Below, piece by piece: positions 17,298-59,938 of a stretch of DNA of 64,000 bases. Positions within the stretch are counted from its first letter, which is position 1. Each line of letters opens with the position of its first letter. The position numbers and the translations under genes are program-made. Below the pieces are notes generated by a model that saw only the letters and a list, made by a program, of their open reading frames with translations, was not told the DNA's origin and ran no database searches. Source of the DNA: Octopus vulgaris (Eukaryota); assembly GCA_951406725.2 (NCBI GenBank), contig OX597817.1, positions 132,804,001 through 132,868,000 of the forward strand, written 5' to 3'.

Positions 17298-17596
17298 ACT
17301 TTTTCACTTCCCGACCGTTAAACTAATACATCTGTTTGTTGTCTACACCACCTGTCTTCCACTTTTTTTGTGAATTCACCCTATATATATATATATATAT
17401 ATATATATATATATATATATATAACGTAAGGGGGATCAGCCATCTGAATGTGGCTAGGGACAGGGCGGGGTGGCGGGGTGTTACTGATGCTTTTAGCCCC
17501 AGGCGATCATCGACGTCACCAGAAGGACCGACACCATCTCGGTGTCCTTGTTAGCCTGTAAAGGGAGATCATCTTCCCTCGAAGATACGAATACTA

Positions 17597-17639
17597 CATA
17601 CGGACCGGTTTCGAGGTCATTGTCTCTTATCAACGTATG
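17597..17639 (-). ncRNA. Type I hammerhead ribozyme, U3-A8 variant
   Basis: Minus strand: catacg-TTGATAA-gaga caatga cctc-GAAAC-CG-GTC-cgtatg. Confidence 0.75.
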
Positions 17640-17799
17640 GTAAGCACCGTTCATCGATGAAGGATTCCCTCTACAGGCTACATATATAAGGTTTTTCACA
17701 GTAACGGACGGTTTTTCTACATCAGTGACGGTGGTTACTGTGAAAAACCTTATATATGTAGCCTGTAGAGGGAATCCTTCATCGAGGAACGGTGCTTAC

Positions 17800-17842
17800 C
17801 ATACGTTGATAAGAGGCAATGACCTCGAAACCGGTCCGTATG
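17800..17842 (+). ncRNA. Type I hammerhead ribozyme, U3-A8 variant
   Basis: catacg-TTGATAA-gagg caatga cctc-GAAAC-CG-GTC-cgtatg; 6-bp helix I, 4-bp helix II, GUC cleavage triplet. Confidence 0.82.
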
Positions 17843-20800
17843 TAGTATTCGTATCTTCGAGGGAGGATGATCTCCCTTTACAGGCTAACAAGGACACCGA
17901 GATGGTGTCGGTCCTTCTGGTGACGTCGATGATCGCCTGGGGCTAAAAGCATCAGTAACACCCCCACCACCCCGCCCTGTCCCTAGCCACATTCAGATGG
18001 CTGATCCCCCTTACGTTATAGAGCAGTTACTGTTTATATCTCGTTCAGATATTTATTATTGTTATATATATATATATATATATATATATATATATATCCT
18101 TTCTTACATTGATATAATGGGCTGCTCACCCAGCCAGCGGAGTGCCATGTTTCGAAAGTTAAAACGACGCAAAGGCTCATGCTAACTAACGACGTATAAC
18201 AGCATCCGATAGGCTGGTCGACCACGTGATCACATCAGTATAACAGAAAGCCTTAATACAAAGAGACCAGATGCGCATCACGAAGCTTTAAGCTTGTATA
18301 ATATCAGTAAGATCCATACGTCACACAATGTAAAAATTCTCATACAAAAATTACACCGCGCTGCCTGTCAACGGTATGTAAACGTTAATTATGACAAATA
18401 GATATTTATTGCAACTTAATGCTGTTTCAGTTGCGTACACCGAGTATTTATTCAGCTCGGCGACTTTCTGAAATATCAGTGAATGTAGTTACACTGTTTC
18501 CTATATTATAGAGAATGAGACGAGAGAATATGTGTTTTTAAGATGTCTCAAGGAAAGCGAAATGCGTCTGGCGTTCTCATGGGTCACTGCTGAGACGATG
18601 TTCGCTTCGGAGCTCCGATATAAAATGTCTTTCTAACACTGTATCTCTAGGAAGAGATTTTCTCTCAGTCAAAAACTATAGCATCATGCCAGTAAATGAT
18701 CTATATGTAGGTGAAGTATGGTATATAGATCGCATTTTCCTTCCCTCTATATGTTTCCCCCCATGATGATCAGGCCTTCTGCTAGGGTAAACAAATCTAT
18801 ATTGCGTTGCCCTCCCCCATTCTCTACAATATGATTGTTCAGACATTCCGTTTTACGCAATTTTTTCATTGTGTTCGCATCATTTAATAATGGCATTCAA
18901 TAGTTATTGTGTTGCAAAAAGTTACCGAGAAAAAGGAAGAGAGGAGAAATACAAGAGAAAAAAAAACTACTTCTAATTCGCTTTTTTTGGCGTTGCCTAA
19001 GCGAATACATACATACATACATACATACATACACACATACACACACATACATACATACATAAATACATACATACATACATACCTAATACATACATTCATA
19101 CATACATACATACATACATATATACATACATATATGCATACTTACGTACGTACATACGTACATACATAAATATATAGTTAATGTATTCAAAACGTATGTA
19201 TAGTATGTCTATATTTTATGTATATTTTATATATATGTACATTTTATGTGTGTGTGTAAGTGTGTGAGCATAAATGTATCACACACATACAGATACTTAT
19301 ATATATATATATATATATATATATATATATATATATATATAGATATAGATATAGATATAGATATATATATATGCATACAAATATTTTTTATGATATAAAA
19401 TATATTTTATATTTCATATTGAGTTCTCTATCAGATAATGCTTCAATCAGCGTTAATATATAGCCATATATGTTAACCAACCATAAATTACGACATATAC
19501 ATGTGTGTATCTGTGTGTGTGTGTGTGTGTGTGTGTGTGTGTACTTGTGTGCGTGTGAGAGAGAGAGCGCGCTGTGTGTGACTGTTTCCAATACGGTGTG
19601 CGCATGTGTAAGTGAGCTGCTAAATATGGCGGGAGAAGGCTCAAGCTTGTTTTTACAAAATAACTGCACGTTTCATATATTTACACAATTATTATTCTAT
19701 ATATATAGTTATTTCGCTGCTTTTTCATTCTCTTTATATCCTTATTTTTTATTGAGTACGTGTGTGTATGTCTGTGTGTGTGTATTCACATAGTATTTGG
19801 GTTACATATATAATATATATATATATATATACGTATGTATGTATGTATGTATGTATATATGTATGTATATATATATGCATGTATGTATGTATGTATGTGT
19901 GTGTGTGTGTGTGTATGTATGTATGTATTTGTTTCGTATTTCCTACAATATTTGGACTAAAATTGATTTACAATAAAACACGTCTACCAGTTATAAAAAA
20001 ATCACTTTTGCAAAGAAAATGGTTTTCATTGACCGCAAAAACAAAGCGGTATGCGTGTGCGCGCATGACTGTGTATATATGTGCGTACATTTGCTTGAGT
20101 GTGTGTTTGTGCATGTCCGAATATGTATGTATTGGTATATGTATACACGCATGCATAAGTCTATGTATGCATGTATATATATATAACGCATGTATGAAAA
20201 AATACATATATGTATCTATGTGTGTATCATATATATATATATATATATATATATATATATATATATACATACATATATACATCATACGCATACACGCACA
20301 TAATTTACGTACTACATTTTGTTGATATGTATGTATACATATGTGTGTGTGTGTGCACTTATATATACATATATGTATGCATGTATATGTGTGTGTGTTT
20401 GTACACGCGTACGTGTGTGTATATGTACACCTCTATATACGTATGCATAAATCTATACAGTCAAAATAAATCGTTTCCTTGTAGTTTTATATGCGTGTGT
20501 ATATGCGTGTGTATATGCGTGTATATGCGTGTGTATATGCGTGTGTATATACGTGTATATGCGTGTGTGTATATGCGCATGTATGTGCGTGTGTGTGTGT
20601 GTGTGTGTGTGTGTGTGTGTGTGTGTGTGTGTGTGTGCAATACTAATGGCCATATTTTCGCGTGTATCTCCACACCCGACCATAAATCGATATATATGAC
20701 TTGCTGTCATTATCTTTTAAAATATTTGCAAGTGATTGGAAATAATTCAACAGAAAACGGACTTCAATTGATTCCAACGGAATTGGTTCCGATAAATATA

Positions 20801-20929
20801 TTAACGCTTCCAAAAAATGGTAAAATAGAGACCAGGACTGGGGACTGGGGGGGGGTTGAAGCAATGGTGTTTTTTTTGGTTAAGACGACTTGGTGCTACG
20901 TGAGAAGAGTTTTTGTATGGTGGCGATGG

Positions 20930-58976: not shown

Positions 58977-59290
58977 AAAGGCGGAGGTATTGTTTTCAGT
59001 CGTGTTTGTTTGTTTGTTTGCCCGTGGACAAGATATCTCAAGAACCGCCGGATGGATTCGGATGAAACTTTCAGGGATGTTCGGCCTTGTGACTGCCACA
59101 AACGGATTAGATCTTGGGACCGATCCGGTTCCGGACAAAGATTCTGGATTATTTTTGACAGCGATCAGGTTCATTTTTAATATTCTCATTTGTGAGAGCA
59201 GTCGAGTTTATTTCAGATATTCACATTTTAAAAATCCTCTCTGGCTAATCGTTGAGAGGACGTTGTTGTTGCCATGGCGGAGGTTTGTAC
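58977..59290 (+). mobile_element. Non-autonomous Helitron/Helentron-like element
   Basis: GGCGGAGGTATTGTTTTC, (GTTT)n, GGATGGATTCGGATGAAACTTT, GATCCGG and closing CCATGGCGGAGGT, the layout of HINE-type elements. Confidence 0.55.
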
Positions 59291-59306
59291 TTGTTATTAT
59301 TTGATA

Positions 59307-59495
59307 AGGCGGTGAGCTGGCAGAATTCTTAGCATGGGTGGGCCAAATATTCGGTGGCATTTCGTTCGTTTTTACATTCTAAGTTCAAATTTCGCCGATG
59401 TCGACTTTGCCTTTCATTTTTTCTGGGTCGATAAAATAAGTACTAGTTACGCACTGGGATCGATGTAATCGACTTACCCACTCCCCCGAAATTGT
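59307..59495 (+). mobile_element. SINE family B copy
   Basis: GGCGGTGAGCTGGCAGAA..GTTCAAATTTCGCCGATGTCGACTTTGCCTTTCAT..GGGTCGATAAAATAAGTAC. Confidence 0.8.
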
Positions 59496-59647
59496 TGTAT
59501 CGCCCTCGCTATAGAAATGCAATCTATTTATATTTTTATTGACTTCTCTCAGTGTTTTACTGATGCGTACTAGCCTATTTACACACAAATGCATGCATGC
59601 ATAACAATACATACACACACACACACACAGATATATATAAAAGTAGA

Positions 59648-59938
59648 AAATTGTTTATTATTAACAGCAAATAATAATCTTCCCTTACAGCTGTTTAAAT
59701 TAATACTCAGTAAATATTAAGTAAATATTAAATTTATATATATATATGACCTGAGCATGCCTGCTATAATGATACCATGTGCAAATATAAAACATCCAAG
59801 GGTAAATTTTTTCCCTCTGAAGATATTATGCACAGGTCATATAAATATAGATTTAATATTTACTTACTATTTACTGAGTATTAATTGAAGCAGCTGTAAG
59901 GGATGATGATTAATTTGCTGTTAATAATAAATAATTTA
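59648..59938. mobile_element. Palindromic HHR element (third partial copy at 58909-58978)
   Basis: Arms 59648-59760 and 59828-59938; tccct-CTGAAGA-tatta...taatt-GAAGC-AGCT-GTA-aggga at 59812-59903; the 58940 copy keeps GAAAC. Confidence 0.75.

Follow-up and report, generated by a model that had tools for sequence, protein, structure and literature searches.

Hammerhead palindromes in the Octopus vulgaris genome are almost certainly Penelope-like element ends, probably inserted by priming on both target strands

A 64,000-nucleotide stretch of the Octopus vulgaris genome (contig OX597817.1 of assembly GCA_951406725.2, positions 132,804,001 to 132,868,000; the window) holds seven modules in which two copies of a hammerhead-bearing repeat lie head to head, and the question is what these modules are and how their two halves came to face outward. 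A sequence-only reading placed the left hammerhead on the minus strand and the right one on the plus strand; this layout was confirmed for the motif or its remnant at all seven, each of which is an inverted repeat (arm identity 74–98%) of a hammerhead-bearing family. Letters denote the families of the modules at 17422 (A), 33128 (B), 23156 (C), 40256 (D), 33722 (E), 44430 (F), and 59648 (G). Three additional modules had gone unreported, and complete the following list.

17420..17705, minus strand: family A left arm, monomer positions 1–286; untailed end running into (TA)21; hammerhead at 17597–17639
17706..18063, plus strand: family A right arm, monomer positions 332–360 then 1–329; hammerhead at 17800–17842; 43-nt tail at 18021–18063
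23156..23253, minus strand: family C left arm with a remnant of the hammerhead and no tail
23258..23412, plus strand: family C right arm; degenerate hammerhead at 23253–23298; ~70-nt tail, abutting a SINE-like repeat
33065..33410, minus strand: family B left arm, including the former "spacer" and a ~57-nt tail (33065–33121); GAAA mutated to GATA
33405..33604, plus strand: family B right arm without a tail; hammerhead at 33482–33576 intact, with long stem II
33629..33883, minus strand: family E left arm; ~95-nt tail (33629–33721); putative Hydra-type endonuclease upstream of the family
33893..34054, plus strand: family E right arm, untailed; hammerhead at 33933–34016 with one core change
40214..40457, minus strand: family D left arm; 43-nt tail (40214–40256); hammerhead disrupted by a 19-nt deletion; pLTR of a putative Neptune-type element
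40458..40536, no strand: family D module centre, ~80 nt without a match among the family D references, either filler or captured sequence
40537..40757, plus strand: family D right arm, untailed
44430..44498, minus strand: family F left arm, untailed, shortened remnant
44500..44665, plus strand: family F right arm; hammerhead remnant; ~38-nt tail; putative Neptune-type endonuclease upstream of the family
59648..59758, minus strand: family G left arm, 5'-truncated within hammerhead stem II
59800..60075, plus strand: family G right arm; hammerhead with GAAA changed to GAAG; long extension; old family, ends uncertain
4122..4280, no strand: additional family C module, left end untailed, right end tailed
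16644..16852, no strand: additional family C module, both ends tailed; one of two exceptions to the end rule
8784..9841, no strand: additional module with an outward minus-strand hammerhead (8966–9057), a 317-bp partial tandem, and an inverted right arm (9670–9841)

The module boundaries first drawn were too narrow, since one arm also carries a tail of 38–96 nt (for example, in families A, B, E, and D). That both 3' ends face TA-rich DNA holds as the general layout and fails at two right ends, one adjoining the SINE-like repeat (23412) and the other (CT)n followed by (TA)n (40757). No hammerhead was found in two other palindromes of the window (31754–32104 and 34290–34426), which were set aside.

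A purpose-built minimal-hammerhead descriptor gave six matches in the window at a score of at least 7 (17597–17639 and 8966–9057 on the minus strand; 17800–17842, 23253–23298, 33482–33576, and 33933–34016 on the plus strand), compared with one in ten shuffles combined; an earlier version that allowed stem II no more than 45 nt overlooked the families with long stems. The window copies at 40256, 44430, and 59648 are remnants, and other copies of the same families carry intact motifs. Intact hammerheads were found in 19 of 30 loci of family F, 15 of 30 of family E, 8 of 20 of family G, and 3 of 30 of family C; family D is the weakest case (one of 20, with a stem II of 2–3 bp). By this descriptor and its shuffle control, the pLTRs carry a minimal type I hammerhead with a palindromic loop III, weakly so for families D and C. 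No hammerhead was among the best 150 of 286 Rfam matches to the window or among the matches to two sub-stretches, and the miRNA matches are microsatellites and hairpins. The name ribozyme rests on descriptor score and conservation within families; these are predicted hammerheads, any activity of which is presumptive. Hammerhead cleavage as the source of the 5' ends was rejected: of 34 family A arms, not one begins where cleavage is predicted (position 104), and many continue across that site.

Our analysis indicates that the modules are almost certainly ends of Penelope-like elements (PLEs), because RT and GIY-YIG frames lie upstream of family D and endonuclease remnants, the only coding traces there, upstream of families F and E. 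A 719-aa open frame in family D (locus L215) contains an RT with the YxDD-type motif FLDD and, at the C terminus, a GIY-YIG domain in one ORF (RVT_1, E 4.6e-6; GIY-YIG, E 0.006; both under the Pfam cut-off). Neptune elements are defined by a CX2-5CxxC linker and a CCHH motif, in part common to Nematis (PMC8557442). Family D has an RT, a CX4CxxC linker (CGRPNCATC), and a GIY-YIG domain with CCHH (CSGC..H..H), and in family F the linker and CSGC are seen; by these motifs both are putatively Neptune-type, and Nematis may be an alternative clade for them. Family E resembles Hydra elements in its CxCX5C linker (CNCRIRSKC), in CxxC and CxH next to the conserved residues E and N (CQLC..E..N..CIH) with no CCHH, and in its (TA)n targets, and is putatively Hydra-type on motifs other than those of the RT, which lie outside the fetched DNA. 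No PLE ORF was found within ~1.5 kb of families A, B, C, and G in the fetched loci, family A being a non-coding tandem; upstream of two long family D copies no 5' pLTR was found, nor was the start of the family D ORF. No complete element was recovered. The families show 5' truncation with inverted pLTRs, fixed 3' ends, and a tail (the ends of family G being uncertain). They had been regarded as unrelated, which they are not in kind, as all carry PLE features.

Family A is a tandem of non-coding 360-bp units, each with a single type I hammerhead (U3-A8 core TTGATAA, palindromic CCGG loop), in arrays that reach ~2.5 units per arm. It thereby resembles the non-LTR retrozymes, with their tandem non-coding units of 150–400 bp and type I hammerhead (PMC7229834; bioRxiv 10.64898/2026.07.22.740005). 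It differs from the metazoan non-LTR retrozymes in its U3-A8 core variant and in inserting as head-to-head arrays that follow the tail rule of PLEs, an arrangement of which term searches of those two sources found no description; these arrays and their tail rule are structural evidence for PLE-driven mobility.

Across the hammerhead families, 109 pairs face outward and six inward (five after duplicate removal and one found by descriptor alone), versus 19 outward and 21 inward among control repeats with no hammerhead; in unselected DNA (264 kb of one contig plus the flanks of fetched loci) the counts were 22 and two. The statement that the ribozymes always read outward proved slightly too strong. 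Four of the six inward pairs enclose a microsatellite and look like separate insertions; the other two (L018 and L169/L170) are direct inward joins within complex loci. Orientation had also been taken to argue against fold-back, for which it is uninformative on its own, because double priming and fold-back both yield head-to-head pairs.

The strongest mechanistic clue is a feature absent from the earlier reading. Of 71 pairs with ends read by eye, 69 have one tailed and one untailed end and none is untailed at both; two (L118 and the window module at 16644–16852) are tailed at both. For families B, D, and E, whose queries contained no tail, one end of each kind was present in 24 of 25 pairs, compared with a fraction of ~0.49 expected from solo copies (P 5e-7), and solo copies of both end types are common (~21 tailed and ~27 untailed); in young family A all 15 pairs have exactly one tail. 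The untailed end falls on an internal TA run of at least 4 nt in all seven families (A–F computed; G by reading, with its ends uncertain), such runs covering 3–16% of family sequences; this pattern was noticed post hoc, and the (TA)n target blurs the exact end position. The tailed end of family A has no TA run. In one locus (L113), the sequence beyond the tail may be host DNA. The near-universal combination of one long and one short end suggests that both cut target strands start copying, at different points of the RNA.

We consider double priming the best-supported mechanism and probably the correct one. Each module would represent one PLE, or a non-autonomous retrozyme-like derivative, inserted into a (TA)n tract. 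The endonuclease would nick both target strands, and both 3' ends would prime reverse transcription on same-source RNA, probably one uncleaved multimeric transcript. Copying would start at a distal site for the tailed end and 38–96 nt further upstream for the untailed end, at an internal UAUA-like run able to pair with the TA end of the target; the two cDNAs would stop independently and join by 0–7 nt of microhomology, sometimes with filler, leaving a head-to-head palindrome with one tail. Use of a single RNA molecule together with pairing to the TA run is a tentative part of this scheme. In LINE-1 twin priming, the second target strand primes internally by microhomology, producing an inversion whose arms share no sequence overlap. 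Both octopus arms, by contrast, are copies of one and the same stretch, so that strand displacement or a second template would be needed, and a LINE-1-style event with abutting arms was rejected because the arms overlap.

Junctions were aligned to sense-strand family references, and the arms are truncated independently of one another. In nine of 38 loci (L010, L016, L030, L071, L111, L113, L127, L173, and L174; families A, B, D, and E), each arm holds unique sequence, which excludes either one as a fold-back copy of its partner. Junction microhomology ranges from 0 to 7 nt, sometimes with filler, and is at least 3 nt in 13 of 32 junctions versus 5–7% for random joins, an excess somewhat inflated by comparing mismatch-tolerant alignments with a null of exact matches. 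Through these two observations the earlier proposal that both ends of a break prime reverse transcription gains support. In 16 of 17 family A loci the two arms carry the same subfamily alleles; arm-to-arm differences amount to 61 of 3443 sites, compared with ~5% between loci; monomers differ to a similar extent (37 of 1916), which does not discriminate a circular from a linear template. The arms of L030 are identical over 360 sites, and this locus hints at a linear mixed template; those of L002 are a mosaic of two subfamilies.

The main alternative, which we regard as unlikely, is fold-back or self-priming, in which one cDNA or antisense template snaps back to form a hairpin and the endonuclease trims its ends, staggered at the TA run, to leave one tail. 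Proposed as self-priming (PMC3846280; Arkhipova 2013) and as "EN-mediated resolution" (PMC8557442; Craig 2021), it accounts for arms of the same source, for the rule of a single tail, and for the TA run, which would be where the endonuclease cuts. Among 48 measured pairs, the tailed arm extends further 5' in 26, the arms are level in eight, and the untailed arm extends further in 14; 34 are compatible with fold-back, and the 12–30 nt of apparently duplicated sequence at the junctions of L129, L130, L151, and L152 is such as snap-back would leave. The nine loci with sequence unique to each arm, however, are impossible from one hairpin, so that fold-back as the sole mechanism is refuted if they are single events, and L004 and L011 fit it only with copying stopped at an inner monomer. 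The evidence favours two primings on same-source RNA over the published self-priming, and a mixture of the two may operate. Besides the fold-back-compatible pairs and duplicated filler, the two double-tailed pairs, the common solo copies, and the L002 mosaic count against double priming.

It is less probable still that later events produced the pattern, by two insertions, or an insertion and a local duplication, after which the arms would undergo gene conversion and one tail would be lost when the internal TA run slipped against the (TA)n of the flank. The TA run would be a natural deletion breakpoint, and palindromic arms can convert, as the identical arms of L030 and the mosaic of L002 would allow. 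Independent tail loss, however, predicts two-tailed and untailed pairs, against which stand the absence of doubly untailed pairs and the uniform family A; moreover, the outward gap has a median of 27 nt, with a microsatellite in only three of 109. An assembly artefact from fold-back chimeric reads is very improbable: no contig was shown to bridge the window's own junction, yet arms differ by 1–26%, ends obey a family rule, two runs, drawn from separate samples and separate studies, have contigs with the L015 junction, and ten of 11 listed joints are head-to-head (the contigs all came from runs that were unlabelled or of DNA type). Contigs of 60–90 nt do not span the insertion ends, which lie in (TA)n, and they resolved no empty site. 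MITEs or other DNA transposons with terminal inverted repeats, suggested by short, many-copy palindromes at TA sites, are refuted by the upstream RT and GIY-YIG, by unequal ends, variable centres, and mostly solo copies, and by arms of 19 to ~2000 nt within families in place of the equal ends, constant interior, and fixed-length repeats of such elements.

This layout was known before. EN+ PLEs have been published with inverted pLTRs placed head to head, a tail often on one side only, and (TA)n targets, and also with a pLTR hammerhead and microhomology at the 5' join (PMC3846280; PMC8557442); the match to this arrangement made earlier was right, and the inverted form has been described as the most frequent one (PMC3846280). 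In those accounts, as excerpted, the tail is optional or often one-sided and the inversion is explained by self-priming or endonuclease resolution, whereas in the octopus the ends pair almost strictly (69 of 71), tails of up to 96 nt occur, and nine loci exclude a plain hairpin. The additions made here are the near-strict end pairing, the TA run, the same-source arms, and the loci that exclude fold-back.

In vitro, the Poseidon PLE PAc cleaves and extends both strands and uses two internal starts that bound the tail, which speaks for double priming; it does not need hammerhead cleavage (PMC11167929). Its start site is alike on both strands, with no strand bias, and lacks homology to the cleaved DNA, which counts against the proposal; no explanation of inverted products was found in the available text of that study. 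Both PMC8557442 and PMC11167929 describe the way in which PLEs form tandem and inverted structures as an open question.

A more general proposal, possible though somewhat doubtful, is that PLEs integrate by a twin priming that is ordered and asymmetric: a single uncleaved RNA would offer two start sites, each strand using one, with the distal site set by protein and giving the tail, and the second strand pairing with the conserved internal UAUA run, across Neptune, Hydra, and non-coding retrozyme families. If true, tail and inverted pLTR would both follow from one step, and retrozymes would ride on PLE proteins. Direct predictions for the existing in vitro system come from the rule of a single tail, from the TA run where the tail is missing, and from the fold-back-excluding loci, which together also give structural evidence that PLE machinery moves a retrozyme-like family. 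With 22 outward pairs in 264 kb, these stumps constitute a sizeable repeat class in the octopus genome.

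All seven modules of this AT-rich, microsatellite-laden window (source assembly, 2.8 Gb) are inverted repeats as the sequence-only reading described them: in 7/7 the left motif reads on the minus strand and its right counterpart on the plus. Each holds a predicted hammerhead of the minimal type I kind, whole or as a remnant. They represent seven families, copies of which were collected from other Octopus loci (L-numbers); in every family an arm ends 3′ at one of two fixed positions, 38–96 nt apart, the distal one giving the arm a tail and the untailed one falling on an internal TA run.

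Window modules by start position (left arm minus, right arm plus), with tail and one-tail pairs of the family
17422: family A, 3′ ends at monomer positions 286/329; 15 pairs
33128: family B, tail about 57 nt; 9 pairs
23156: family C, tail about 70 nt; 21 pairs
40256: family D, tail 43 nt; 10 pairs
33722: family E, tail about 95 nt; 7 pairs
44430: family F, tail about 38 nt; 7 pairs
59648: family G

The hammerhead search pattern (descriptor) reads stem I, core CTGANGA or TTGANAA, stem II, GAAA, palindromic loop III and TH; TTGANAA is a U3-A8 core variant (PMC4209133). At a score of at least 7 it matched the window 6 times, versus 1 match across 10 shuffles. Rfam listed no hammerhead in two sub-stretches or among the best 150 of 286 matches for the window, so the label of putative ribozyme rests on the descriptor. 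Within the window, modules 40256, 44430 and 59648 hold only remnants; elsewhere an intact predicted hammerhead occurs in 1/20, 19/30 and 8/20 loci of their families, respectively. A short (TA)n tract common to modules B and E (33604–33629), with a like case at L174, is a sign of repeated insertion at the same target.

Other features of the window and its surroundings
49798–49878, minus: solo hammerhead-like motif with a CTGATGA core, which only the first descriptor picked up
31754–32104 (arms identical, 96 nt) and 34290–34426: inverted repeats adjoining TA tracts, no hammerhead by descriptor
45293–45803 and 46474–47004: a 510–530 bp repeat present twice, 82% alike, between ATT/TTA tracts
2–167, 12469–12636, 30345–30493, 32764–32930, 36343–36511 and others: abundant SINE-like dispersed repeats, often in two parts with a microsatellite between; used as orientation control
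L036:614–2410, about 49.4–47.6 kb left of the window: nested inverted repeats of 330–620 nt, 99–100% alike, between TA tracts, no descriptor match; possibly a very young family

Pair orientation was scanned with 20 hammerhead-sense references against the contiguous 264 kb around the window and 190 other loci, a pair being adjacent opposite-strand copies at most 2.5 kb apart, with duplicates removed. The two orientations are far from equal, with 109 outward (head-to-head) pairs versus 5 inward in one contig region and the best-scoring 20–30 loci per family. The polarity thus holds as a strong bias, and the earlier "always" is slightly too strong. The descriptor added one more inward pair, the sixth, which the reference library had not caught. 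The unselected 264 kb alone gave 22 outward versus 2 inward (P 4e-5), and three non-hammerhead control repeats 19 versus 21. In four of the six inward pairs, a microsatellite lies between the copies, which look like separate insertions. The other two (L018 and L169/L170) are direct joins, in complex loci where outward pairs are present as well. At L018:1860–2232, the clearest direct inward join found, a family F copy is joined tail-to-tail, without TA between, where a family A arm is broken off; at L169:1385–2001 a family E inverted unit occurs twice in tandem with the same centre, its outer ends one tailed and one untailed.

Among 71 inverted pairs with both ends readable by eye, 69 combine one tailed and one untailed end; two are tailed at both ends (L118 and window 16644–16852) and none is untailed at both (0/71). 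Five more family A loci agree, by coordinates only. The 71 leave out family G and about ten minor-family pairs, whose ends were unclear or unread; loci that are interrupted or cut (L014, L018, L025, L054, L088, L092 and L187); the complex L169/L170; and L213–L215, where the retrieved sequence stops short of the far end. Queries for families A, C and F contained the tail and were biased toward tailed copies; with tail-less queries (B, D and E) 24/25 pairs are one-tailed, versus about 0.49 expected from solo copies (P 5e-7; about 21 tailed and 27 untailed, some perhaps with a partner too short or too far to detect). In 7/7 families (G read by eye) the untailed end lies on the element's own TA-alternating run of 4–8 nt, such runs making up 3–16% of reference sequence; this rule was seen post hoc, and the exact base is blurred by the (TA)n target. 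No TA run was found at the family A tailed end.

Copying of one cDNA that snaps back into a hairpin requires one arm to be contained in the other. Nine of 38 loci of families A, B, D and E (L010, L016, L030, L071, L111, L113, L127, L173 and L174) have arms that each contain a stretch absent from the other, so that neither could be a fold-back copy of its partner; L004 and L011 are hairpin-compatible only if copying halts at an inner monomer. In six families together, 48 of 61 loci could be measured, the others having unresolved centres or different end types: the 5′ reach is greater for the tailed arm in 26, greater for the untailed arm in 14 and equal in 8. Fold-back is therefore compatible with most measured loci, and a mixture with two primings is possible.

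Family A subfamily alleles are common to both arms in 16/17 loci, and arms differ at 61/3443 sites versus about 5% between loci, implying that both came from one source unless gene conversion homogenized them. The remaining locus (L002:1095–1830; arms differing at 18/331 sites) has an outer left monomer that is a mosaic of two subfamilies, through either template switch or conversion. Of 34 family A arms, none has its start at the predicted cleavage site, which many of them run through, so the template was probably uncleaved; 6/34 begin at monomer 47–57, just upstream of the hammerhead. This cluster lies 10–20 nt upstream, within the long stem enclosing the hammerhead.

Junction microhomology, whose tabulation the sequence-only reading had proposed, is enriched. 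In 32 of the 38 loci (6 with longer unexplained centres left out), overlaps of at least 3 nt occur in 13/32 and of at least 2 nt in 17/32, versus 5–7% and 16–19% in random joins, an excess somewhat inflated by alignment tolerance. Duplicated or foreign filler is present at several centres; that of module D (40458–40536) has about 80 nt unlike any family D reference and possibly captured.

The palindromes are real and not assembly artefacts: contigs of four public runs on 17424–18062 gave 11 joints, 10 of them joining other family A copies head-to-head, and the joint 17538 to 17780, which is the L015 junction, occurs in two samples from two studies. The flanks of several joints are short, and none of the contigs was seen to bridge the junction of the window's own module.

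Identification of the modules as inverted pLTRs of Penelope-like elements (PLEs) was correct. Upstream of family D is a 719-aa RT and GIY-YIG frame, whose linker reads CX4CxxC and which also holds a CCHH motif, its RT and GIY-YIG Pfam scores below cut-off; this fits a predicted Neptune-type PLE as defined in PMC8557442. Upstream of family E, an endonuclease end of CxxC/CxH type with a CxCX5C linker matches the Hydra definition there. Family F has a similar endonuclease upstream (L189, L195 and L182). Family A, a non-coding 360-bp tandem with one predicted hammerhead per unit, resembles a non-LTR retrozyme, and no ORF was found for families B, C and G up to about 1.5 kb away. The search for each family yielded 1100–2300 candidates, 40 of which were scored. 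At L113:700–1010 (minus) a tail and short TA run precede a frame of some 30 codons that opens with ATG and may be either the start of the family D ORF or part of the host DNA.

The inverted-pLTR arrangement itself is already known. Head-to-head is the most frequently observed arrangement, with an optional tail on one inverted pLTR (PMC3846280); inverted 5′-truncated copies often have a tail at one end and a (TA)n bias (PMC8557442); and paired minimal hammerheads lie 100–700 bp apart on opposite strands (PMC4209133). The end-pairing count, TA-run rule and twin-priming account were not found in the accessible PLE literature, subscription papers mostly excepted.

We consider it likely that both (TA)n strands prime on RNA of the same source. 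Both target strands would be nicked and each 3′ end would prime, on one RNA molecule or two, at the distal site for one strand and at the internal TA run (as pairing or endonuclease site) for the other; the two cDNAs would then be joined through microhomology. The Poseidon PLE, which in vitro cuts and extends both strands from two start sites bounding the tail, fits this two-priming account (PMC11167929). In that study, however, neither a strand preference in the choice of start site nor homology at the start was seen. Near-strict end pairing extends over Neptune- and Hydra-type PLEs as well as a retrozyme-like family, making an open mechanism testable.
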